Positions 7,889-62,723 of a stretch of 64,000 nucleotides of DNA are shown here, piece by piece (the stretch's first letter is position 1; each line of letters starts with the position of its first letter). Position numbers and translations under genes: made by a program. The notes beneath the pieces are model-generated. The model saw nothing but the letters and a program-made list of their open reading frames with translations. It did not search any database and had not been told where the DNA came from. The stretch is from positions 124,001 to 188,000 of the forward strand of contig JAUFOQ010000004.1 in NCBI GenBank assembly GCA_040285855.1, in the 5' to 3' direction. The DNA is from Eukaryota sp. GEM-RC1. Its lineage: Eukaryota.

Positions 7889-9038
7889 AAATTTATTAAA
7901 CTATTCAACTTGCCCTTGTGGAGCTAATGGAGTTTTGCATCATATAAGTAATTGTCGTTATTTTATTCATCTACGTGCAGTAATTCATGATGGTGTACGT
8001 GATTCTTGTTATTTCAGGTTTAAAGCACACGGTTTTCACTCTAAAGCAGGGATGCGAAAAAATATATTTATTTAAATAAATTATTGTTCCCGACGAAAAT
8101 AAATATATTGTTATTGTTGTGGCCAACAATAAATATATTGGTATTGTCAAGTTTGGAAATAAATAAATGAATATATTGGCAATATTTCTACGCAATCCGA
8201 TGACTCATTTTTTTGTGGTCTATTCGCCATTATCCGTAAAATTTCCTTCACTGTCCAACAACCAGGTCAAGGGTTAGTATTAAGACTGTTGCGAACAGTA
8301 TCTTCACCATAGATTAGAGTTATACATCAATAAAAGTTGTTTTTCCAGACTTGATGTATGTAGTCTTGTGCGAAGGGTTTCAGCAGTCACATTAGCACGA
8401 CTAAATAGTCCTTCTATTTGCTTGGATGGACCTGTTATAAAATCAATCTAGTGAGATTTGGATTAATGAGAATCAGGGACATTTTACAAACGCTCTGGTA
8501 TGTCCCACGCAAAAAGTTCTTCTGAATGTTTCTCACTCTTACGATCATCAGTTCTTGATTGCAGTTTAGACTTTGTTGAACTACATCAGTTCAAAAGCCA
8601 AACAGTCAACAATTTGACGTAAACAAATAGTATACTCTATTGTATAGGTTGTTTTTCCTGAAGCGAAAGCCCTTCAGAGAACTACTGCCCCCACATCACA
8701 TCTTCTTGCTCCCAAATGGAAGCAAAATTGCATGTAACATGAAACAGATGGATGATTTTAGTGAAGAAAATTATTGCCACAATAAACAATATTATTGCAA
8801 TATTATTGTTTACTGCCGGGACTCACAATAAATATATTGTTATTGTTTTGACCAACAATAAATTTATTGTGAATATTTATTGCAATAAATAAAATAACAA
8901 TATATTTTTTCGAATCCCTGCTCTAAAGTTGAACCAGTTTTGAATCACATTTTAGAAAGTGAAAGATTAATCTTAGTATTATTTGTTTGAATTTCATAGT
9001 TTTGTAGGAAGGTTACCTTATTGGGTACCGAATAAAGT
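7889..9038 (+). mobile_element. Internally deleted CRE-like LINE fragment, split by a hAT element
   Basis: 7889-8046 plus 8929-8960 match 38000-38190; ends in the family 3' motif TTTTGTAGGAAGGTTACCTTATTGGGTACCGAATAAAGT. Confidence 0.8.
8047..8920 (-). mobile_element. hAT deletion derivative
   Basis: TIR CAGGGATGCGAAAAAA / TTTTTTCGAATCCCTG; perfect TSD CTCTAAAG (8039-8046, 8921-8928); minus-strand remnant IEGLFSRANVTAETLRTRLHTSSLEKQLLLMYN resembling the hAT dimerisation domain. Confidence 0.9.
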
Positions 9039-10050: not shown

Positions 10051-10163
10051 TTAGATAAGAAAAAATGATCTGATTGAATTGGGATTTATTGTCCACAAGC
10101 TCTCTACACCAGCTGAGTAACAAGCGAACTCTGCTTCCAACTATTGTTCATTTGACTGTCGAT

Positions 10164-30974: not shown

Positions 30975-31755
30975 CACTCAACAACCACGTTCTTTGGGTT
31001 TGCATTTGTCTGATGAGGCTTGGAAATTAAATATGCGATTGCGTTTAGGTTTGTTTTCTGCAGAATTGCTGGACAATTCTGAGTGCATTTGTAGTCATCG
31101 TCGCAGTGCAACTTTTAGACATCTAATTAATTGCCCCAAATTTATTCAATTTCGCTCAGTTCTTCATAATGCTGTAAAAGATGTTACATTTGAAATGTTT
31201 AAGGCTCATGGATTTCATGCCAAAGTTGAACCCTTATTTAGTAAGTTGGGTCTTGATTTAATTAATAATTCTCGTCGAGGTGACTTACATGGTCCTTTCG
31301 TTGATTCTAGTCAAATTATCCTTGATGTTACAACAGTTGATCCATGTGCTCAAACTTATGTTAATGGCTTGAATTCAAAAGGTTTTAATCACCTAGAAAC
31401 AGCTGAAAAACGTAAAATTGATTTGTATTCCAAAGATGTTGCTAAACTCAATCAAAATTTATATTTGTTCCATTTGCTATATCTATTTTTGGTAGTATTG
31501 GTGAAATGGCTTCTAAGTTTTAAACTGATTTTGGATCTATGTGTCAGTCTCAGAATAATAGATTTAACATATCAATTTGGCATAACCGTTTGATTTTTTC
31601 TTTGTTCCGTTCGGTGCCTAAGTTTTTTAAGTCAATCTTCACAAAGTTGTATAAGAACTGTGGTACTGTTGACCAGGAATTTTCTGTGTCTATTGTTTCA
31701 TAGCTTTTATTATGATATGTATTTGTGTACCCTCCATCAATAAACTGTATTTTTT
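30975..31755 (+). mobile_element. 5'-truncated CRE-like non-LTR retrotransposon (CCHC plus restriction-like endonuclease domain)
   Basis: ORF 30994-31593: C.C...HLINC...LHN...EP...RGDL...DVTTVDP...AEKRK. 10-bp TSD ATACTAAGAT (30965-30974, 31756-31765). Confidence 0.88.
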
Positions 31756-32408: not shown

Positions 32409-34711
32409 CATGGTGCGCAAATTAGCGGTACGTACCGATTTATTTTATCCGTACCGATGACATTTGATGTCTAATACAGCTGTGTTCATAAACAATTTTA
32501 TTCTATTCAAAAACACTATTTCCAGAGTTTAGGTGCATCAAACTGTCAAAGTCGGCATCATCACAATTTTCTTCTGCCTCTTCCATTCGTTTGGAAATCC
32601 ATTGTTCGAGTCTTTGGGCCTTTTTGAGTGATCTCTCACGTAGTAGTCGTTCGTTAAATGCTATGTGAGTTAAAGCCGACAGCGTTGATGTTTTCATACG
32701 ATTCCTAAGCTTCGTTTGTACCATTGACATTGTGGAAAAGTTACGCTCAGCAAATGATGTGCTGCTGATTTGACTAAGAGTGATTATCGCGATCTTTTGA
32801 AGTCTTGGATATCCAGAGCCATGTTTCTCCCACCACTCACCTGGAGACATTGTATCAGCCAGTGTACGAATGAATTCCGTTGCTTCTGCAATTTCTTGAG
32901 CAAAGCTGGTCATATCGTTTGGGATCACAACCCCATTAGCTAAATAGGCTGTCAATTCACTTTCACAGATATGAGCATCTCCTTCCTCAAGAAGCTTACT
33001 ACAGAGAGAATAAAAACTAGCCATAATACGCAACATTTGTTCACTTTGCCCCAACCCCCTTACTGCTTCGAAATGTTTAGGATCCAACAGAAAGGCAACA
33101 TATTGGATCGGAGTCAGCAACATACTGATTCTTGTATCGTAGGCTTTCAAGATTTCGTTTCTTTCTGTTGCTGACAAAAGGTTGGAAAACTGGTTCCAAT
33201 TTCCGATCGGACGGTTGCAATTGTGGGCACAATTCTGCTGATGTAATGTGCCTCCGAATCAACCATCTGTAAAAATACAACCACTGGCTTCCAGAAAGAG
33301 ATGATCTGTTTCACTTGATTCCAGAAGAACAGATTTTGAGTTTCATTCTGCAAAGCAGTGTAATCACCTCTCTGATCCCGATTCTGTTTCTTCACCCAAT
33401 TCTCGAATAGAGGGTCAGCCAGTGTTTCAACAACGGCTTCTCGTAACTCATAGATTCGAGACAAGCTCAAAAAATGAGTATAAAATCGTGTGACAGCATA
33501 CTTGATCAACATTTTTGAGATTTTTCAAGGAAGAGACGTTTTAGTTCAACATGGTTGTTGATAACTTTAACAATTTTGTTAGCAATGCCGATTACTGTTT
33601 TAAATTCTTGGCTCTTACAAGAATCTTCGAGAAAAAGATCCAAACAATGTGCAGCACATGAAGTTGTGTAGATTTTTGGGTGTACTTCTTTAATAAGCCT
33701 CGTAGCTCTGAGAAAATTTGACCCATTATCTGTCACAATTTGAACAATTTTGTCTGCTCCGAATTCTTGAATGTGAGCCAAGAGATAACGAGCAATAACC
33801 TCTTCGCTGAGTTTCTCCCTAAATTTTTTTGCTTCTCGAAATACAGCACCATCAGCTGAAACCAAAAGCACATTGACAATAGTTTGATCGTTGACGTTTT
33901 TCCACCCGTCACAGATCATTGTGCACTTTGTTGTTGAAAATCTTTGCATTATAGGAATAAGACGATCTGTAGTATCGAAAACTGTTTCCTTAAGAGTCAC
34001 AGTTCTAAAAGTGGTGGTACTAGGAGGTTGCCAATGCTTACCGTATTTTATGGCTGATAGAAGTAGGTCAGAAAGTTCAGAAGATTCAATGGCTCTGAAT
34101 GGAACATTGAACCGCGCAAACAGCTTCATTGCGTTTTGGTTCATTTTACCATGTCCCACTGTTTGAAAATCATCCAGTTTCGCTTGTTTAAGTGGAGGTT
34201 GAGTTGTATCTGAGGTCTGTGGGACTAAAACTACAGCTGAAGGAGAATGAGGAGGGGATATCGGATTTATTCCAAAAGATCGTATAGCACTTCTAATTGC
34301 CATTGTGAGAGAGCTTTGCGGATTCTGACAAGGAGCACACCCAACATTTTTAATCTCAGGAAGAAAGTGACCCAAGATCCGTGACTCTCTTCCCCTTAAT
34401 GTTCGAGGACAGTGGCGACAAGTAGCAACTAAGTTTCCATCGATCTTATGAATATCAGTGAGTTGTTCTGCAAGAGCAGTGTTTCTGAAGAAGCTCGACA
34501 TGTAAGATGGAGGGAAGCCTATGTATTCAGTAGAGTATAGTTGATACCAAATTAATTCTCACAAGGGTTATCATCTACTAGTACATATTTGGAATCAATC
34601 ATATTTATTTTTGTCGGTCAAAAGAACAGTACTGGTACACGTACTGTACGTACGTACGGTACGGTACGGTACGCCTAAAATCGCCTCGGTACGGAACATT
34701 TGCGTTCCATG
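32409..34711 (-). mobile_element. Full-length hAT DNA transposon
   Basis: TIR CATGGTGCGCAAAT / ATTTGCGTTCCATG; perfect TSD TCACCACC (32401-32408, 34712-34719); GTACG subterminal repeats; transposase inside. Confidence 0.93.
32503..34501 (-). CDS. hAT transposase (BED finger, DDE core, dimerisation domain; two frameshifts)
   Basis: CRHC..H..C, CDGW, TDNGSN, CAAHCLDL, TRF, WWEKHG...AERNFS...KLRNRM across ORFs 33506-34501, 33147-33512 and 32503-33177. Confidence 0.92.
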
Positions 34712-37317: not shown

Positions 37318-37869
37318 GATTATATCTTTTGTTTTCTTTTGTTTGTTAGTTCGTTTTTGGGTTAGTGTTTTCTTTTTTATTTCTCTCGGTCCTTTTTGTC
37401 AGTGTGTTGCTGGTCCTTTTTGTAAACAATTTAATTATGGGCCGTATTTACATGTAGTCCTTTTTAGGAGATAAACTATCCTTACACGGAATTTTCTTGA
37501 AAAGACGGTTGGTTATTAAATAGATACCAATTTGCTAGCAAAACGAAAAGTCAAAACAACACATACAGTGTATCCTAGATTTGGTGTCAAAAACTTGAAA
37601 CACTTTTGAATAACCTGTTAAAATATTTTGTACAAGAGTTAATACAAACAACATCGGAAACATATTATATTACAGTTACCGTGTGTAACTATAAATAGCA
37701 TACACTGTGATAGAAACTGTGTGGGTACCTGAAACGGATTGTACAAAATTAGTGAGCATGCATCTACCGTAAATCAAAATGCAATCATCTGGAGGACTTC
37801 CAAATTCCATGAGAGTATTAATTGCAGATTTTACAAATATAGACCAGTACAATGATCTAAGGATGGATA

Positions 37870-38697
37870 GTTTCTTTTAATTGACCGTTGTAATAGTGGA
37901 CCTTCTGGATGTATTTCTCAAATTCCTAAGGTTTTAGAATTACATCTATCCGATGAAGCTGGGATGATCAATATGCGTCTTCATTTGGCTATTTGGCCAG
38001 CAAATTTATTAAACTATTCAACTTGCTCTTGTGGAGCTAATGGTGTTTTTCGTCATTTAATTAATTGTCGTTATGTTATTAATCTACGTGCAGTAATTCA
38101 TGATGGTGTACATGATTCTTGTAATTCTATGTTTAAAACACATGGTTTTCACTCTAAAGTTGAACCAGTTTTGAATCACCTTTCAGAAAATGAATTAACA
38201 GACCAACAAGAGGGGATCTCCATACTTCATGGCTTAAATCGAGTCAACCATTAATGGATTTTACTACAGTAGATGTTTGTAACAAATTCTGTGTCAGTAG
38301 GATATTAGATTCTTCTTTTAATCCATTAACAGCTGCTGAAAAGCTCAAACATTCCAAGTATAACTCTCAAGTAGAAGAATTAAATAGAAACTCATATTCC
38401 AAATTTGTGTTCCAACCTTTTGCTGTTTCTCGTTTTGGATCGATTAATCCTGCTGGTGATCAATTTTTCAAGGATTTCGAAGAACTGTGTAAGGAAAAGA
38501 AGTGTAAGTTTAGAATGGCTGAATGGAAAAACCATATAGTGTTTTCCATATAATGGACTATGACTTTCTATTTTTCTCGATTAGTTGGTGTGAAGGTTAA
38601 TGTTGAAAAACGTAATCTTTTACCGGACGTGAATGAAGTCGTTTTTGCAATTTCATAGTTTTGTAGGAAGGTTACCTTATTGGGTACTGAATAGAGT
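37870..38697 (+). mobile_element. Decayed CRE-like LINE 3' part (RLE domain) with the family 3' terminus
   Basis: ORFs 37964-38254 and 38254-38553 (CSC..HLINC...HD...KVEP...DFTTVD...AEKLK..KY...FQPFAVSRFG); 3' motif at 38659-38697. Confidence 0.85.
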
Positions 38698-38784
38698 CTA
38701 ATATCTATTTATGGATGGAAGTGAATAAAGCAAATGTGGGAAACAGTGCTAGGATTATTGCGATTTGACCATAAATAGTTGAGG

Positions 38785-38940
38785 AATCGCATATCGTATG
38801 TTAGCGTCTGTTTCTAGCGCTGTATTATCTCTAGGCAGACATTATGAGGATAAGGTAGGTGAGAATTTCCAGATAGTCAACCTGGACTTTGAGGATATTG
38901 ATTATTAGATGTATGTACACTGTAGTGTTGTTGTCAATAA
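38785..38940 (+). repeat. Dispersed repeat, probably the 3' end of another LINE subfamily
   Basis: High similarity to 56811-56980; ends in AATAAA. Confidence 0.7.
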
Positions 38941-39885
38941 ATAGAGTTGTGTAAACAAAATATGTTAATGTTGATGGTATTCTATATTTGTAAACCAGAA
39001 GGAGAAATCAAATGTGTTTCTTGTTTGAGCTATAAAGCACCAATAGCAACAACTATCCGACATCACAATCAACCAGAGCGTATTCATATACCATATTTCG
39101 TGGTGTCATATGAATACTTTAGCCAGGAGCAGTCCTTTATTAGTTCTACCCAATTGATAAGCATATTTCAACTATAGAGGATTGCATTTATCATCAAAAC
39201 AAGATTATGTTGAACAGTCCTAAAGTGTTCAAGATAGACATTGGTGACTATGGGTTAGACAGGTTAGTGATACAATCAGAAATGGGTCACTGAATGGACG
39301 ATTCGAAATAAAAAGACCATATTACTGTGTTTTATACGATATATATTATAGGAGAGGAAGAGATGTGAACACGGAGGGAGAAAGAGATTCAAACATAAGA
39401 TACATGAAGAGAAGCTACAGGAACTAAGAAGAAGAAACGGAAGGAGAAGTCAGGAGGAACATTACGGAATTTTGGTCTGTATTTTATGGAAAGCAGCGAG
39501 AGTGACGAATGGCCAGGGTTGTTAATTTTGAGAAGATATGTTCAAGTGAATTGAGAAGATCTTCAACTTGATGAAGAAGTGTTTGCTAGACATTAATAGT
39601 GGTTTCAGTCATCAGCAGGTGGCTTATTTATGACAGATGCTTCAAGAATGTCCTTGAAAGTACACAAAGTTATAAAGACAGTCAAGGTATAACAAGGTAT
39701 AACAAGAAGAAAACAAGACGAAAAGGGGTGTAAGAACTAGAAGAAGTTTTACTGTAGTATTAGTATGAAGGAAAACAAACTGCATTCCAAAATCAAATTG
39801 AACTATAGATCACGAAACGGAATCCAATGGAGGGGAAAGTAAGAACAAATCAATCACATTATCGACACCGACTATTCTTGGTTTC

Positions 39886-42800
39886 ATGAATCCCTTTCCG
39901 TCAGTGAACTGTGCTAGAGGTCCTGTTTCTCCTCATCCAATGAGAGGTGTGAAACGCCTTTCAATGGAACTATCTCCAACTCCATTGAAAGCACAAAACA
40001 TCCAGACATTGGATAAATTATTTTGCTTTATGGAAATCAGAGCTATTATCTCTGAAGACCATCGCCTCAATCCAGAGGTCGCTGAGGAACATGACAGTGA
40101 TGATGAAGACTGTCAAGGGCCACAAGTGAAAGACCTAATACACGAGTTTTCCTATGATGGAAGTAACGATTCCATTGTTTCTGTATCAATGGAATTTTGC
40201 TCGTCTCTTGGGTGTCAAGGCGACACTTATCTCTTTACTTGGGGTTGCAATGAACTATATATTCAAGACTGTTCTATCAATGGTTTTAGTTCAGAAACAT
40301 TGATGCTGGTTAATCTGATTGAATTCCTCAAAGCTATGCGTCCACAGCTTTTGATTGGATATAACTGTGACAAGTTCACTTTTCCATTTTTGATTTCAAG
40401 ATGCAACCATTTGATGATTGATGTTAATTTTCAATTTGACGGATATACTCCATATGTACCCACATGGTTTAAGAGATGGTGCAAAACGTCCTCTTTTGGT
40501 CCATTTCACTGCCTGGATTTAAACTCAGTTTTAAAATCCTTGTACAAATTTAAAGGTGGTCGCTTTTTGGAAAACGTAACTCAAATTATGTTGGAACATG
40601 ATCAAAAAAATTGGAAAAATTCCGAATTAATACGAATTCTAACCAATCCTCTGTATAATATTGATGAAGCTATCGCTAATTTCAAAGCGGAAAATAATGT
40701 TTCTGCACTATCTGCAAAGCAATTGTTTAGGTTAAAAACTTCTAGTGAACTAAAAACAATCAATGACCTTTGGAAGGCTTCATCAACAAGACCCCGTTTA
40801 CTCCAAAATGCAATTGATCGCCTGCATCTGTTAAAATTCATTGCTTGTGACTTGTTTGATGGAAACAAGCAGAAAATCAGAGAAAAATCTCCAATGAAAG
40901 TGATTAAAAGAAGACTCACCAAAGTTGTGACAAAATCAAAAATCAAAGTTATCGAATCGTGTGTGAAAAGAAGTCACCACGTTAGAGTTCGAGGAACTCA
41001 CTTCCTAAAACATTTTTGATTCACGAATTTGACTGTGAATATTTGAAATTTAGAGATTCTATGGGAACACATTGTAATTTGCCAAATTACTCGAAAATTC
41101 TGGATCAGAAACCTCTGAAGGTTTTGTTATCTTTGATGACGATCAAAGAGGACGGCTCATCTGACCATTTGAGCCAGATAGTCCTTGAACGCCAAGAAGA
41201 CCTGAAAAAGGTCGCAAAAAAAACCAATTCTTTGAATCTGTTTAAAATTCGACTTATTAATCATCTACTCACTAAGTTCCTTCCTCTTTTGAACGCTGCT
41301 GCTATAGTTGCTGGTAAGCAAATGGTAAAATTCCCAAGTAACTTGTACTTACCCAGACTACTTGATTACATGGCCACTGAGATCTCCACCAGTTACAAGA
41401 ATAATATGGCAAAACACTTTCACTCCTATGTCTTTCGAGTCTTCAACTTAGTAACGGAGAAAAAATCTAGAGCCATGAAAATTGAGTGTGAAGATGAACG
41501 AAAACTTTTTTCCAGCGGCTTAACAGCATCCGAGAGTTGATTGTCAACGGACAAATTGATTTAATTGATTTTCAGGATCAAACTATTTTTCCCACCAATT
41601 CTAGGTTAACTATTGCTTTTAGGACTTACTTGACATGTCAATTAAACAAGAAAATGCCAAAGGGATTATACTATGCTCAAAAAGTAAACCCTCTTAAGTT
41701 CCTTTCACATGCAATCTATCTGAACAGACTGATTGAGGAATTCTGTGATAATGTCTCCGTCACCAATCCCTTTCCAGTGACGTCATCACTAATTCCTGGT
41801 CACGTGAGACTGGACTCTAACTGGTTTCAATTGAGATTCTTACCAGATCTCAAGGGAGAAATGGATACAATAAGGAAGGAATTATGGAATACTGTTCTTA
41901 AACCAAAATCAGTTCCAACTTCCCTATCTTATGACTTTGCTTTTACCTCTATTACAACGGATGGTGTTTCTACTTCCCTGCTCATGACAAGAAAGGATTT
42001 GTTGGACTCTCATGGAAATCCTAGAAAAAATCTTTCAGCAAATGACTTGGCTGCGGAAGAACGCTATGTGGACTCTCTGACAACGGAAGAAATTACTAAA
42101 TTAAATCTCACAGGCAAAAAAATCGTAGCAATTGATCCTAACCAACACGATTTAATCTTTTGTGTTAGTCCGAAAACTGAGAGCGAAAAAAATTCAAGAG
42201 GGATTTGACCTGTCAAATAAGACTCGATCTAAACAGCTTTCACAAATTAATTGCAAAAAGAAAGGGGGGATACAAAAAGAGAAGAAGAGACTCAAAAAAG
42301 AAAAGAAAAGACTCAAAGCAGAGACAAAAAGAAAAAAAGAAATCACCAAAGTTAAATTGAAAAAAAGCCACAGCTGGAAAACATTCCGGTACACAGCTGG
42401 TGAACGAACTGCTGACCAGAGAGGCAGATTTATCAAGAAAAAGAAAAAAGAACAAGCAACCATATGAGCAAGTCAGAGAGCCTGACGATGAAACCTCAAA
42501 GCTTCTGAAATTCACCACTACAGTAAATGGTCGTCACATGACTGGCAAGGAAATTGCTGATAATTTCAGCTCCAGAGTATCCTCTGGCAAGGTAAATTCG
42601 GTTACCCCAGATAAGTAAGTACCCTTTTGGTTACGTCATTTTGGTTACCCCACAACCACTTCTGCGGGGTAACCAAAAGAATAGAAGTACTTTGTAGATA
42701 AGTACAGTTTGTATCTGACAGAAACAGAAGCTTATGGGGCTATGATAGACACATTTTACGAAGAAAAGTCTTTCCGACGCCAGAGACTGAAGAGGTACTC

Positions 42801-43694
42801 GAACAATCAGATGAGTCAGCAAAATATGCTTCATCGTTTTGCTCAAAAGTTCGGATCACCAGGAGAAGTAATTATTGGTTTTGGTGATTGGATTGATTCT
42901 AGAAAAGCCAAACGAACTGGAAAACGATCATTTGTAAAAGGCAAATCTATGAGGAAACTTTTCCGAAAATTCGGATACCAAGTTTTTCTAGTCGATGAGT
43001 ATCGAACTAGCAAATGCTGTTCGAGTTGCACATTGCTTGGAACAGAAGGCTTTTGCTCGAACCTAAAAGATGACAAAGTCCGAGACCCTAATTGGAAAAT
43101 TAAGTTAAATCGTAAAAAGAAGAAACTTCAGAAAGAGGTTGTTGAGTATAACCAAAAATTACTGTTGGGTAAAGATCAGAGAAACTTTAAATATGAATGG
43201 GAAAAGAAAAAGATGGATTAAAAAGCAAACTCCAGGAAGCAAAGGTTTCACTATGGGGCTTAGTGCGATGCGCCACGTGTGAAACATACTGGAACAGAGA
43301 CTTTAACTCTGGTATCAACATTCACAGTATTATTGAAGCAGCGATCCAAGGTAGAAGTAGACCTTCCGTTCTTGAGAGAAAAAAATCTCAAACAAATGAA
43401 TTCGAGAACGGAATGGCGATTAAGAAGAAAAGAAAATGCACAAACTGCGGCGAAGTCGGTCACAATTCTAGATCATGTTCTAAGAAGAAGAAAGAAAGGA
43501 AGATGATTTCAAAGATTTTGAGAGAGTGTTCAATATGTCATGAGACAGGTCATGACAAAAGGAACTGTCCGATGAACAGAAAAACTGTTGATCAACAGAA
43601 GACAAAAGAGAACGGAACAGGATCAACAGAAGACTGTAGTGCTAAAGTTCATATAGCTCCTCTTAGAAGTGTGAGCAAGAAAGTCTGCATGTAA
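39886..43694 (+). CDS. Fanzor1 RNA-guided endonuclease with an N-terminal PolB-type exonuclease-like domain and two C-terminal CCHC knuckles (about 1240 aa after repairing 5 homopolymer indels and removing an 87-bp insert)
   Basis: Fanzor1 motifs in order: LDYMATEISTSYKNN..HF, IPGHVRLD, SITTDGVS, RuvC-I VAIDPN (D 42134), FRYT, FYEEKSFRRQRL, IIGFGDW, RuvC-II LVDEYRTSKCCSSC (E 42997), LWGLVRCATC, RuvC-III WNRDFNSGINI (D 43299), RP..L.R. Confidence 0.9.
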
Positions 43695-43701
43695 ATGTAG
43701 A

Positions 43702-43781
43702 GATCTGTGAAGTATTATCAATGGTGGTATGATTTGTAGGGAAGACCTAAATTATGCAATTGATGTGAAAATCACAGGGTC
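43702..43781 (+). ncRNA. Candidate Fanzor omegaRNA scaffold (long stem-loop)
   Basis: Starts 8 nt after the Fanzor stop. Four stacked helices (43702-10/43772-81, 43716-22/43759-65, 43727-34/43750-57, 43737-40/43746-49) with a GAAGA loop; several G:U pairs favour the sense strand. Confidence 0.55.
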
Positions 43782-43816
43782 ACTGTTTAATCATTTTTCG
43801 TTTCTTGTAACTATTA

Positions 43817-45919
43817 ATGGGTAATTCACTATGTCACACAAACACTTCCGTTGAAGACGATCCTGTTGAACAGGATGTTCTAGATGAACTTCCTGATGAC
43901 TTTCATGATGGAGAGGAGCGTTTCTTTCTCGAAGAAGAAGAACCTGAAGAAGTTGAAGAAGAGAACTTCATGGCCATAAGACCCTGGATTGGTCCTATGA
44001 ATGGATCAACACCTATGGAATACCGTGATCCTAACTCCCTTCCCCCCAAACGAAGAGCCTAAGAAAAGTTTGATGCTGGACTACGTTTATGGCGGTTTGT
44101 ACCTCCCTGCTTTTCCTTATTCCAGTCACAACTCAGGGAATCCGTTCACATGTCCAATTTGTGAGTGACGATATGCTTGTGTATCCCGCTGCCGGAGTTG
44201 GTGTAGTCCTCTCTATTTCCTCCAACTTTCAATCCTTCTTCCGTGGACACAACAACGATATTTCCGCCTTAGCTGTTTCCAAGGACAGGTCTCTGGTTGC
44301 CACAGGACAGATTGGCAAACGCGCCAGAGTTTGTATTTGGGACCCCATTTCACTGAAAGAAGTTGGTAGTTTTACTTCTCTAGAAAGAGGTGTTATTGCT
44401 GTTGCATTCGACCATACTGGCCGCTATGTTGTTGCTGTGGGTAACGACGACTATCACTCTGTTGCTGTCTATGACATTAAAGCACAGAAGCAAATAGCAC
44501 TCCAACGTGGTGAGCGTAACAAAGTTTACCATCTATCTTCCTCTGCCGCTGGTTTCATCATGGCTGGTCACAACTTTGCTCGTCTTATTACCATCAACAA
44601 CGACGCAGTTGACATTAAGAAAGTCCTCTTTGGTTCCGGATCCTCCCGTGCTCAAGTTGTTCCCTTCCCCTGCTGTGCTGCACTTGCTGATGGAAGAGGT
44701 ATTCTAGGTAGTTCTAAGGGTGAACTGTACATTATGAGTGGTAACTCTGTTACTAGCACTGTTCAAGCTCACAGTGGACCAGTACTAACGATCTTTGCTG
44801 ATGATTACGGAGTTGTTAGTGGAGGAAGAGACTGTACCGTTAAGTTGTTCTCCACCAGTCTCAAGCAACAGACTTCTGTTAAGTTAGGTGCTCCTATCCG
44901 CTCGGTCTCTCGTCTTCCCTCGGCTTCTTCTCTCACCACTGGACTTGCTGTTACTCTTGAAGATGGATCTATTTATCTCTTTGATTTCATTGAAGATGAA
45001 GGTAAACTTATTCAGAAGTGTCATGGTACTCTGTCCTATGCTGGTAAAGCTGGTTTAACCATCTCTGAAGCCTGGGGAATTGCCGTTTCTCCTACTGCAC
45101 CTGAGTTTGCTTCTGTAGGTGACGATGGTCAGCTAATTAGATACTCTGCTGTTGACAAGAAGGCTCTGAACTATATTAGATTGCCTAATGTGTCACGGTC
45201 TGTTTGCTATTCCCCCTGATGGAAGGATAATCGTTACTGGTCTGTCTGATGGAAGAGTTGCCTCTTTTAATTCTGAGACTCTTGAGAAGCTAAACATTGT
45301 CACTCTACCCCGAAGAAACCGTAGACCAATTCCTGATCAACTATCTAAACAGTTTGCTGAATGTGGTGTTTCTGATATTAAGTTCTCTCCTGATGGTGAG
45401 ATGATTGCTTGTACTTCTCACACTCAGGACATTTTCGTTCTTTCAAAGGATTTGCAGTTGTTACACACCATGGCAGGCCACACTGCTCATGTTAAAGCTT
45501 TCGATTGGGATACCACCAGCTCTTATCTTCAGTCAATGTGTGGTGGTTACGATTACCTTTTCTGGGACGCTAAGAATGGTAAACAAGTGACCTCCGCTTC
45601 ATTCTTTGCAGATAAGGAATGGGCCACCTGGAGTTTAGTTATTGGATATGCTACCAAGGGTATTTTTAAACCAGCTCAGAAAGGAAGTGATATTAATACT
45701 GTTGCTAAATCTAATAACAGTGACCTTTTGGTAACTGGAACTGATGATGGTACTGTTGAGTTGTTCAATTTCCCTGCACTTCATGATAATCAAGAACGTA
45801 AAATGTATTATGGACATTCTGCTCATCTTACTGGTGTTGTATTTGCTCCTAATGATGAGATGTTGTTCTCTATTGGAGGGCGCGATAACTGTATTTTATC
45901 CTGGTTTGTTGAAGAATAG
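43817..45919 (+). CDS. EML/EMAP-like HELP plus WD40 microtubule-associated protein (31-nt intron 44095-44125; two frameshifts)
   Basis: FMAIRPWIG, spliced LDYVYGVTTQGIRSHV, YPAAGVGV, GHNNDISALA, WATWSLVIG, SDINTV, YYGHSAHLT, SIGGRDNCI; N-terminal MG..C. Confidence 0.88.
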
Positions 45920-50949: not shown

Positions 50950-52060
50950 CAAAACATAACATCTTTTGTTTCCAGGACATTCAACTACAATATGAATTTC
51001 ACAACTGTTGATCCTTGTAATTCCAGATATAGCCATTAGAATGGAATCACTGCGAATAAATAACCTAGGACAATTAACCAAATGATGAAAAGAAGAGATC
51101 TTCGCCGATTTCCAAATACACTTGCTATATTGCAGTAAACCAAAAGGCACAATCCTGGACGTAACCCTACATTTTCTTGCCATTCATGGTCTTCTAGATT
51201 AAAGATGTATCTACCTGGAAGTTGGGTAATACATGTAAGAGAAAAACATTCATTGTAAAATAATTGAAGTACTGGAGTCAAAACACTTAAATTTGAAATC
51301 ATTAGAACAAAATCCATCACGATCAAGTCACACAACAGCTCTGTTCTTATAAATCAGGGGTCCAGAAAAATATATAAATAATAATAAATAAAAAATTAAT
51401 TAATTAATTTTTCCATCTGAATTGTTAGCTAATACTATGTGTTGTTGTGAAAAGAGACAAAAGCTGACTTCAGACACATTGTTAGTTGCAAAAAATTTCT
51501 TCAGTTTAGATCGATTTTACACAATGCTGTTCGTGACGTTACGTATGAAATGTTTAAATGTCATGGGTTTAATGGGAAAATCAAACCTCTTCTTAAGCAT
51601 TATAGTGATGATAATATTACCAATTCTCGACGACGTGATCTCATTGTTCCATAGGTTGATTCTTGTCAAGCTGTGATAGATTTTACTACTGTTGATCCGC
51701 TAAAGTATATTTGAATTCAGTTGCGAGTGATACTGAAATTCATTTATGCAAAGCTGAAAAAAAAATTAGTACATATTCTGACACAATGATCAAACTGAAT
51801 TCCAATTTGTATTCTTCTTTTAAGTTCATTTCTTTTGCTATTTCAATTCTTGGTAATATTGGATTTGCTGCTGAAAAATTCTTTGATGCCTTTTCAAAGT
51901 TGTGCCGTGATCATAGGAAAAATTTTAATCAGTCTCTTTGGCGCAATAGCATTGTTTTTTCCTTATATAGAAGTTTCCCAAAGTATTTGAATCGTATTCT
52001 GGACAAATTGTATCGTGGTAGTTCAAGAGTAGATGTGGATCATTTAATATGTTTTAACTA
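50950..52060. mobile_element. Cluster of decayed CRE-like LINE fragments in both orientations
   Basis: FTTVDPC near 51000 (+); HEWQENVGLR..HHLVNCP at 51030-51340 (-); DFTTVDP..AEKK..FAISILGNIG..WRNSIVFSL at 51420-52050 (+). Confidence 0.75.
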
Positions 52061-52264
52061 CTGGTTGTTTGTATTTCGTTAATGTATAACATAAAAAAAA
52101 AGTATAATATATAAATAATAATAAATAAATAATCTACTTTAACTAGCGTCTTCTAGTTTTGGTTAGTGTTCATTGTACGTGGTAGCTTGGTGTCTTCACA
52201 TGAAATCGTGTTCTTAAAAATACTCTCTTTCTGTGTTTATAAATTAACGAAATACAAACAACTA

Positions 52265-52458
52265 CACTGGTCACAATATTTAGTCTCAGTGGAAAATTAG
52301 TCTCACTGAGACTAATTTATGTATTGCGTCCTTTTCGACATTTTAGAGGCAAATGTCGCCAGATGATAATTAGTCTCAAGTGAGACTAATTTATGAATAG
52401 ATCATTTTGAAACTAGGTTATGAATTAGTCTCACTGAGACTAATTGTTGTGACTACTC
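52265..52458. mobile_element. Small MITE with palindromic internal repeats
   Basis: Left end TA-CACTGGTCACAATATTTAGTCTCAGTG; imperfect right inverse CACTGAGACTAATTGTTGTGACTACTC; three AATTAGTCTCA-(1-2 nt)-TGAGACTAATT palindromes. Confidence 0.65.
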
Positions 52459-52482
52459 AAAAGATATTTATTAGACAGAGAG

Positions 52483-56810: not shown

Positions 56811-56980
56811 AATCGTGTTTGCTATCTTTAAAGGTATGTTTACTTCTGTATCTAGCCCTGTATTATCTCTTGGCAGACATAATGAGGATAAGGTAGTTGA
56901 GAATTTCCAGATAGGTAATCTGGACTTTGAGGATATTGATTATCGGATGTATGTAGACTGTAGTGTTGTTGTTAATAAAA
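56811..56980 (+). repeat. Dispersed repeat, probable LINE 3' end
   Basis: Matches 38785-38940; encodes IVFAIFKG, like the C-termini of the other RLE LINE copies. Confidence 0.7.
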
Positions 56981-56981
56981 G

Positions 56982-57067
56982 TAAGAATGAAATTCCTTAA
57001 AGATGAACTTACATCCTGTTTTGTTAAACATAGGATTTAAGTTCATCTTGAAGGAATTTCATTCTTA
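56982..57067. repeat. 86-bp near-perfect inverted repeat (foldback)
   Basis: TAAGAATGAAATTCCTTAAAGATGAACTTA (56982-57011) vs its inverse at 57038-57067 with 1 mismatch in 30, plus a further inner stem. Confidence 0.9.
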
Positions 57068-57817
57068 ATGTTCTTCGAACGATTGACTCGTCGTTTTCTG
57101 ATTCTCACAATTGCTCTTGCTGTCTTCTATTGTGGTTATCTCCTTCCATTCAGATCACTATCATATTGTTCATCTGAGACTTGCACTAATATCCCTCTGC
57201 AAACACGTTTCATGGTGTGGTTACCTTCATTTCTATTTTTTACTCTATTCGCTGCTGTTTGCATTAAACTCCTTCTTGCGTCTGGTCACGTGCTAGTTCA
57301 TGCCAGAAAAACAAAAGTCTCTGCCATCGTCGTCATTGCTCTTTCTACCATAACTCTCGCCCAAACAACCTCTTTTCTCCTGGCCCATAAGTCTGTACTT
57401 CCACTATCAGTCTATATTGATCAAAGTAGTGATGATTTCTCTTTTACAACTTCATTCCTCGCCTCCTCTCTCAATATCTCTCTTCAAGGGATACCATTGT
57501 CCCGATTCGAATCAATCGGCTTCTCTCCTTCCTCTCTCACTGCACTTCTCTTCTCAAATTCAACTGATGTTTCATTAGAGACTTTTGTATACCCTCACCC
57601 ATATTTAGATTTAGTTGGGGAAACACGTGGTACTATTTCTGATGACGGGAGCTCTTCAATCATTTTTGATGTAGATGATGACGATTACACTTGTTTGATA
57701 GTATTTGACGATCAGTTGTTTGAATTAGGCAATGGTTTCGTTTTAGATGGTTCTGTTATTGATTATACTTTGTGGATTGATATGAGGTTGATTATACCAA
57801 TCAAAAAAGATTCATGA
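57068..57817 (+). CDS. Hypothetical membrane protein (3 N-terminal TM segments)
   Basis: 249-aa ORF with hydrophobic stretches; no family recognised. Confidence 0.55.
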   Translation: MFFERLTRRFLILTIALAVFYCGYLLPFRSLSYCSSETCTNIPLQTRFMVWLPSFLFFTLFAAVCIKLLLASGHVLVHARKTKVSAIVVIALSTITLAQTTSFLLAHKSVLPLSVYIDQSSDDFSFTTSFLASSLNISLQGIPLSRFESIGFSPSSLTALLFSNSTDVSLETFVYPHPYLDLVGETRGTISDDGSSSIIFDVDDDDYTCLIVFDDQLFELGNGFVLDGSVIDYTLWIDMRLIIPIKKDS

Positions 57818-61727: not shown

Positions 61728-62723
61728 ATGGATAAAGACGAGGAAACTGCGTTAGCATCTATTGTGCGTCAGAAGAACGAAGCTGCTGACAAACTCACTG
61801 CTGGATCTCTTTTTCTCAATAAAATGGAGTTACAAGTTGCTCTTAAGCATTATAACTTATTCCGTGGTGCTAAAACAAAAGTAACTGCAAGTAGTGGCGA
61901 TCGACTGTCGACCACATGTCTTGATGCACAATGCTCTTTCAAGTTAACATCTACATCACAACGTCCCGGTAGACGTACCATGTCTCGTAAGATTGTATTG
62001 GAGAAGTATCCCTTCAAAGTGAACCAGTTTTCCCCTCATACATGCCATGGATCCCTTTCTACTACCAATCCAAATGCATGTCCCTTATTCATCTCCAGAA
62101 ACCCTGTGGTCCGAACCAAGATTCGAGCAAATTCTTTTTATTTAACTCGAGACATAATGCATGATATGAAGATCCTTTACAATGTTGATGTTCCATATCT
62201 TACCGCACACAGGGCGAAGAAATTTTGTATCGACGATATGTTCGGCGGATATGAAGAAAACTTTTCTCTTCTTCCTCTCTATAAATACTACTTTGATCAG
62301 ACTGCTCAAGATTCTATTCTTATTTATTCCACTAATAATGAGATTTTTGACAAACTGTTTCTAATGTATGGAGCCAGTAGAAAAGGATTTGAATTTTGCA
62401 GCAAAGAGCTGCTCATGTAAACGATGGCAAAGAACGGCTACCCATGTCCTCACGCATTGGCTGTGTTTTTGAAGAAGAAAACGATGCCAACTGAAGGAAT
62501 TGAGGACATACATTCTCTTCAGAACTATGCCTGCACATATGTTGGTATTATTCCGATAATGCCTGATAGATCAGAATGGGCAGAAGTGAGAGGATTGGAT
62601 TGTGTGATTGCCCCCGATCCAAACAATGCTCCTGGTAGACCACGTAAGAAGAGAGCGGATCGTTTTGCATCGCATCAAGCAAGAAAAAGAAGGTTAAGAA
62701 GTCTGACATCGACAATTGGCTAG
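61728..62723 (+). mobile_element. Mutator/MULE transposase relic lacking the catalytic core
   Basis: MuDR-like N-terminus (FLNKMELQVAL...C....CSF...HTC), G.YEENFSLLP.Y, LF....ASRKGF..C, then directly SWIM-like GYPCPHALAV and PGRPRKKR. Confidence 0.8.

Follow-up and report, generated by a model that had tools for sequence, protein, structure and literature searches.

What is the rod-like hairpin that directly follows the stop codon of a Fanzor gene in the GEM-RC1 genome, a few dozen bases ahead of a host EML-like gene? The sequence-only reading of this locus took the hairpin to be the scaffold of the Fanzor guide RNA (omegaRNA). We analyzed it within its window, by which we mean the whole 64-kb stretch of DNA studied here, and all coordinates refer to that window (Table 1). 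We believe that the hairpin, which we call the rod, is probably part of a Fanzor1 omegaRNA. The explanation we favor, with a probability of roughly 0.4, is more specific: the rod may close a long omegaRNA scaffold as its last stem, and this scaffold would lie at the right end of a Fanzor1 element present in multiple copies. On its own the rod is an expected, ordinary member of a known system, and the element around it matters more than the rod.

Table 1. Positions of the gene parts, RNA stems and neighboring features discussed in the text.
Feature	Position	Strand	Description
Exonuclease-like domain	39886..41019	+	N-terminal; family-B DNA polymerase 3'-5' type; PF03104, E 8.5e-10
Fanzor1 body	41016..43694	+	Several frame-shifted pieces; stop TAA 43692-43694
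Insertion	42610..42704		87 nt; internal inverted repeat; 8-nt direct repeat at bounds
12-bp stem with inner 4-bp hairpin	43364..43413	+	Inside ORF; best SL1 candidate, putative omegaRNA 5' end
Two CCHC zinc knuckles	43437-43478, 43527-43568	+	C-terminal; weak PF00098/PF14392 matches
8-bp hairpin	43647..43676	+	In last codons; pair probabilities 0.95-0.97
7-bp hairpin, GUAA tetraloop	43684..43701	+	Contains stop codon; pair probabilities 0.87-1.0; alternative SL1 candidate
Rod	43702..43781	+	Putative terminal stem of omegaRNA scaffold and putative right element end
Putative guide region	43782..43800	+	Start about 43778-43786; pyrimidine-rich, host-like 5' flank of EML gene
Host EML-like WD40 gene	43817..45919	+	Beta-prop_EML, Beta-prop_EML_2; 31-nt intron 44095-44125

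The Fanzor1 gene and its fused domains

The gene upstream of the rod had been called a Fanzor, and we can confirm this and assign it to Fanzor1. The best PDB matches of its body are SpuFz1 (E 4e-8) and PpFz1 (E 2e-5), tblastn and alignment also back the identification, and the RuvC motifs are intact, with the D in IDPN (42131-42142), the E in DEYRTS (42994-43011) and the RD in WNRD (43290-43301). In excerpts of PMC3627910 and PMC13565253, the Fanzor1 hallmark is given as D-x(125-275)-TS-xx-C4 zinc finger-RD with the E just ahead of the finger, and the gene has this pattern of D, TS, C4 zinc finger and RD. It also has, at 41957-41965, the TDG motif that the WED domain of Fanzor1 carries (PMC10711439, in excerpt).

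The copy in the window is damaged by several frameshifts and by an 87-nt insertion with stops. The frameshifts are possibly assembly errors, since some of them lie near homopolymer runs; the host EML-like gene likewise has two, close to runs of C. The insertion looks MITE-like from its sequence, and the sibling protein P0003 is uninterrupted across the site. A GTAAGT donor lies close to its start, and it is possibly spliceable like an introner: in-frame splicing of 93 nt (42615-42707) would take it out with the loss of two residues. A near-identical sibling, P0183, has a frame that is open from RuvC-II to the end, and because it finishes with the same last residues, we take the stop of the window copy to be the true C-terminus.

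The gene belongs to a multi-copy mobile element family. The exonuclease ORF cluster has five members, and we consider the family mobile because these sit on five contigs; related families have 26 and 14 members. The closest Fanzor1 proteins, all annotated as hypothetical, are labelled Eukaryota sp. TZLM3-RCL, GEM-RC1 and TZLM1-RC. These organisms are skoliomonad metamonads, and the accessible portion of the skoliomonad genome paper mentions neither Fanzor nor TnpB (bioRxiv 2023.05.03.539051). A phage collection gave zero tblastn matches, and related-locus scans returned only distant Fanzor1 loci. Three Fanzor1 loci (L149-L151) are found in one bacterial metagenome-assembled genome and are probably mis-binned viral or eukaryotic contigs.

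The exonuclease-like domain at the front of the gene is 39% identical to the same domain of an intact fusion (P0008), and in the sibling P0227 the reading frame passes from the exonuclease part into Fanzor. At the other end, CCHC knuckles follow RuvC-III in the window's gene and in the P0004, P0166, P0178 and P0009 families. The exonuclease-Fanzor-knuckle architecture is therefore real at the level of sequence. Judged by the DEDDy residues (DxE of ExoI, D of ExoII and YxxxD of ExoIII), the exonuclease domain of the window's family is degenerate: the window reads CFMEI and GYNCDKFT where the intact fusion reads FDVE and GYNCDKFD, the ExoI and ExoII acids are replaced in all five proteins of the family, and the residues of an active exonuclease are incomplete throughout it (n=5), whereas all three motifs are present in seven full-length fusions labelled RCL. 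Each of these seven is a single ORF of 1394-1494 aa that combines the full RuvC triad with the three exonuclease motifs and a 2A-like motif. The 2A-like D-V-E-A-N-P-G-P stands ahead of the exonuclease domain in P0008, P0167, P0175, P0215 and P0220-P0222, and none was found in the window. The RCL-labelled family has thus kept the exonuclease motifs and DVEANPGP and is without knuckles, whereas in the window's family the exonuclease acids are lost and knuckles are present. Because active-site-intact and degenerate forms both exist, the role of the exonuclease is directly testable.

Among 4656 long candidates there were only two fusion clusters, both RCL-labelled; the exonuclease ORF matched none of 151 distant Fanzor1 loci, and a CCHC knuckle was seen in none of 109 tails of distant loci. 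Single-sequence structure prediction of the exonuclease ORF gave a pLDDT of 33, too low for use, and an Atlas search only repeated the Pfam assignment, with scores below 0.9. We rejected an 'HVN' match that linked the P0004 tail to another frame of the hairpin, since the related P0178 does not have it. We found no description of an exonuclease-Fanzor1 fusion in literature listings or in the accessible portions of PMC10711439, PMC10530073, PMC6338049, PMC13565253 or supplements; the search covered text rather than figures, and S1B of PMC10530073, which displays Fanzor domain architectures, could show one. Joining an exonuclease to an RNA-guided nuclease is an engineering strategy, as in TREX2-SpCas9, and the families described here show that a natural fusion of this kind exists. 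The Fanzor1 system is known; what we consider new is the exonuclease-Fanzor-knuckle architecture and, possibly, a 430-nt scaffold.

An upstream stem and the length of the predicted omegaRNA

Fanzor1 omegaRNAs consist of a 7-bp SL1, a variable region, a terminal stem and then a 14-15-nt guide from the flank (PMC10432273, PMC11423790, both in excerpt). An SL1 of seven pairs is seen in three solved Fz1 RNAs, with a single stem after it in SpuFz1 and PpFz1, and the region past SL1 varies freely among GtFz1, PpFz1 and other Fz1 omegaRNAs (PMC11423790). In the supplementary table of PMC10432273, Fz1 RNAs are 75-229 nt long, and by eye UCCG opens those of SpuFz1, GtFz1 and one PpFz1. The 3' strand of the terminal stem is the element's TIR/TSD, according to an excerpt of PMC10711439.

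The giant-virus and metagenomic Fanzor1 elements that we collected (L001-L151, with TA-flanked TIRs) have at most about 35% identity to the window's gene over the full match and zero nucleotide similarity at the 3' end, but their layout is similar. A UCN leader, 7 bp and a short loop occur in 83 of 103 distant loci, with a CG-ended loop in 81 of the 103 (background for the signature, 23 of 472 blocks), and this SL1 lies inside the ORF, about 100 nt past WNRD (median 101 nt after the W codon). Their terminal stem ends at the element end, which in 52 distinct related ends falls 15-98 nt past the stop. Of 47 representative ends, 8 were dropped as mis-set; of the remaining 39, 36 have a stem's 3' strand as their last bases, and 16 have a z of -3.2 or lower, versus 5 of 38 controls. 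The rod occupies nucleotides 8-87 past the Fanzor stop, and its end at 87-91 nt fits this layout.

SpuFz1 of Spizellomyces punctatus (PDB 8GKH; PMC10432273, in excerpt), the best structural-database match, resembles the window in its DPN/DEYRTS/WNRD motifs and in a long stem past the stop that ends at the presumed guide. It differs in being 638 aa long without exonuclease domain or knuckles, in its 88-90-nt RNA that lies wholly past the stop and has a compact SL1, and in its 30-nt inverted repeats, none of which we found at the window element. The rod thus fits a terminal stem in position and shape, but calling it the scaffold, as had been done, is too narrow given that the SL1 signature is absent nearby: the strict form (UCN, 7 bp and CG-ended loop) does not occur within 43290-43800. 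An SL1 covariance model gave zero matches at both Fanzors of the window, with a low sensitivity (of 20 held-out sources, it recovered 1 at E < 0.01).

Our best SL1 candidate is the 12-bp stem about 340 nt upstream of the rod. It opens with UCCG, its CG stands +113 nt from the W codon of WNRD, where distant relatives have theirs, and it folds well (z -4.68, 0 of 200 shuffles; pair probabilities 0.83-1.0). Since codon pairs with codon in this stem, protein sequences can test it. Using codon pairing in the five other families only, the 12-bp register ranked 1 of 7626, and shorter registers ranked 10 of 8385 (9 bp) and 28 of 8911 (7 bp). In a substitution test that considers changed residues only, at the amino-acid level, with synonymous bases unseen and the families mutually related, the changes keep the stem pairable more than the nulls do (joint p 0.006 with a single-base null; 0 of 20000 with a BLOSUM null). 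The joint p was 0.009 and 0.021 after removal of one or the other of two related families, and the RCL-labelled family alone was neutral (p 0.27-0.51). Covariation counts on alignment A6 were discarded as circular because its rows had been chosen by motif. Counting against this candidate are its 12 pairs and 28-nt loop, as well as the pairing of both its leader and its CG, two parts that in SpuFz1 contact each other. As a precedent for loop expansion, the L090 locus has an SL1 past the Fanzor stop with a 21-nt expanded loop that by eye is still CG-ended.

The folded tract is not limited to the two stems. The 433 nt of 43358-43790 have z -4.61 on the + strand and -2.77 on the - strand, and equal folds over 430 nt occur at only four loci on + and three on - in the 64-kb window, which suggests an unusually long omegaRNA. 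The knuckle-coding stretch is itself strongly folded as RNA (its best windows, at 43481-43610, have an approximate z of -5.4 to -5.8). Because the sibling ORF runs to 43694 and the guide lies beyond the element end, any RNA using the upstream stem would exceed about 350 nt, and it would reach about 430 nt with the rod as its closing stem.

The long omegaRNA would start inside the gene near 43362, run for about 420-440 nt and end in a guide of about 15 nt read from the flank. By known Fanzor1/TnpB biology, a transcript would be trimmed to the omegaRNA, which would bind Fanzor supplied by an intact copy. The complex would then cut the empty allele or sister chromatid, where a left-flank TAM adjoins the guide match, and repair off the occupied copy would restore or spread the element. 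The occupied allele would escape cutting, since there the guide match is preceded by the scaffold end instead of a TAM. With TnpB, a guide taken from the flank leads to restorative homing; for Fanzor1, cleavage has been demonstrated and homing inferred, as stated in an excerpt of PMC13565253. By analogy, support for the long RNA comes from the position of the rod and a terminal-stem architecture that match the related ends and SpuFz1.

The GtFz1 RNA also overlaps the end of its coding sequence (PMC11423790 and the table of PMC10432273, both in excerpt), over 17 codons compared with about 110 codons here, and about 430 nt is roughly twice the longest Fz1 RNA (229 nt) in that table. If true, such an RNA would about double the tabulated Fanzor1 range, a protein tail and a guide scaffold could expand together, and codon-to-codon pairing would offer a way to detect such RNAs using protein sequences alone. 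We suggest only tentatively that a Fanzor1 lineage encodes a natural two-nuclease protein, a family-B proofreading 3'-5' exonuclease joined to the RNA-guided RuvC, and that in the knuckle-bearing families the omegaRNA grew to about 430 nt when the knuckle segment was gained between SL1 and rod. That gain would have lengthened protein and RNA together; the exonuclease might trim cut DNA ends or the guide at its 3' end, and the knuckles might chaperone the long RNA.

The strongest competitor is a compact omegaRNA of about 100-150 nt, in which the 43647-43676 or the 43684-43701 hairpin serves as a non-canonical SL1 and is followed by the rod and the guide; of the explanations considered, it comes nearest to the sequence-only reading. 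Such an RNA would have the order of SL1 and single stem known from SpuFz1 and PpFz1 and a length within the known range, both small hairpins are stable, and 43640-43790 folds with z -2.71 (4 of 300 shuffles). We nevertheless consider it rather unlikely: neither hairpin has a UCN leader and a CG-ended loop (the 43684-43701 hairpin lacks both), there is zero CG between 43614 and 43798, and the conserved upstream stem would be unexplained. It is more likely that the rod is the last stem of a long RNA than that it makes up most of a compact one.

The fold of the rod

All four stacked helices and the GAAGA loop of the sequence-only reading are found in the sequence, with 28 pairs of which 4 are G:U; the hairpins at 43684-43701 and 43647-43676 and the stronger stem at 43364-43413 had escaped that reading. 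It had stressed that the G:U pairs work only on the sense strand; the count stands, but minimum-energy folds generally contain G:U pairs, so this asymmetry is not diagnostic. The comparison with shuffled sequences that it proposed turned out favorably for the picked 80 nt (z -3.21 on +, with 4 of 1000 shuffles as good, and -1.53 on the opposite strand, with 83 of 1000 as good) and unfavorably for the span 43702-43816 (z -0.85, 41 of 200 as good). The whole 64-kb window holds 5664 80-nt windows with a similar GC content, and 55 of them fold equally well or better. By regression-approximated z values, the rod is matched or beaten by 249 of 12786 windows (about 2%) and by 63 loci, and 124 of 2556 120-nt blocks (about 5%) fold equally well. 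The rod is only modestly beyond chance. Stable parts of it are TGTGA/TCACA and the upper three helices, where most pairs have probabilities of 0.8-1.0; in wider context its basal GATC/GGTC helix is unstable (0.07-0.22). No further copy of it lies within the 64-kb window, the exact 27-nt pattern had zero matches in metagenome contigs, and an Rfam scan gave only five chance matches (E 4-9).

These background rates and the z of 43702-43816 speak for the view that the rod is host DNA, promoter or spacer, folding by chance, in which case the element would end between the stop and about 43760. Zero TIR was found, and the change in purine fraction at 43782, from 0.60 down to 0.31, could reflect a transcription start rather than an element end. 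However, the rod continues a 430-nt folded, purine-rich tract and ends at a distance from the stop that is typical of related elements, and we regard a chance fold as improbable.

We give still less weight to the idea that the rod is element sequence that functions as an mRNA 3' element or forms a structure at a DNA end, with no role in a guide RNA. A guide RNA from this locus is a prediction, which leaves room for this idea, but under DNA parameters the fold of the rod is weak (-8.2 and -5.6 kcal/mol), and the sense strand folds better than the other. Helitron1 3' ends have a short subterminal palindrome and a CTRR terminus (PMC3627910), and on inspection neither was seen at 43740-43800. Given that the RuvC triad is intact in the family, a guide RNA is expected somewhere.

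The putative guide, the EML gene and other features of the window

If the rod is the terminal stem of a long omegaRNA, its end would be the right end of the element and the guide would begin there; both positions are placed by analogy with related elements, with a boundary good to within several bases. The bases after 43782 resemble the T-rich flanks ahead of the PTH2 and MAK starts. Elsewhere in the window, every site differs from the putative guide by at least 3 mismatches. At the element we found neither a left TIR nor a TSD that exceeds chance; a 9-nt direct repeat at 39284/43777 as TSD and an inverted 14-mer at 37672 (2 mismatches) as left TIR were both rejected as near chance expectation by rough estimate. 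The region 37400-39887, read through stops in a search for a transposase, matched no Pfam family.

The sequence-only reading had the guide lie in the upstream region of the EML gene, within 35 nt of its start codon, and the distance is correct: from 43782 to the ATG at 43817 is 35 nt. The guide region does adjoin the EML start, but we see no evidence that it functions on EML. It would lie there because of the insertion site of the element, and since by construction a guide taken from the flank targets the empty site, its closeness to the start codon needs no further function. A domesticated system that specifically regulates or cuts the EML promoter, to which the overlap of the putative guide with the last 35 nt ahead of the ATG could point, is very improbable, as any flank yields such a guide, the family is mobile, the guide has the same sense as the EML mRNA and the window copy is damaged. 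The motif ATCATTTTT occurs at 43790 (+) and at 10069 (-), 19-27 nt ahead of the EML and PTH2 starts (2 of its 6 occurrences), and is possibly an initiator-like element.

A second Fanzor1 at 56396-55350 (-) is unrelated to the first and decayed, with many stops; 23 nt past its stop (55327) is a weak SL1-like hairpin, at background level. A 146-nt repeat, 90% identical between 38796-38941 and 56834-56979, is found upstream of the two Fanzor genes and is oppositely oriented relative to them. Between the first copy of this repeat and the exonuclease-like domain, 39100-39700 resembles decayed coding sequence; by eye it has faint motifs like those of kinases, and it gave no Pfam match. Three mutually similar segments by self-BLAST (37887-38553, 30994-31593 and 51711-52082) presumably resemble the C-terminal restriction-like endonuclease of non-LTR retrotransposons; the pieces that were tested had zero Pfam matches. 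Strong palindromes lie at 56981-57070, 52241-52460 and 8661-8910, the first two of which fold on both strands, and all three are probably MITE-like DNA hairpins. Finally, the ORFs at 32503-34501 (-) and 61728-62420 (+) have motifs that we take to be those of hAT and MuDR transposases, respectively, and they are candidate mobilizers of the Fanzor element.
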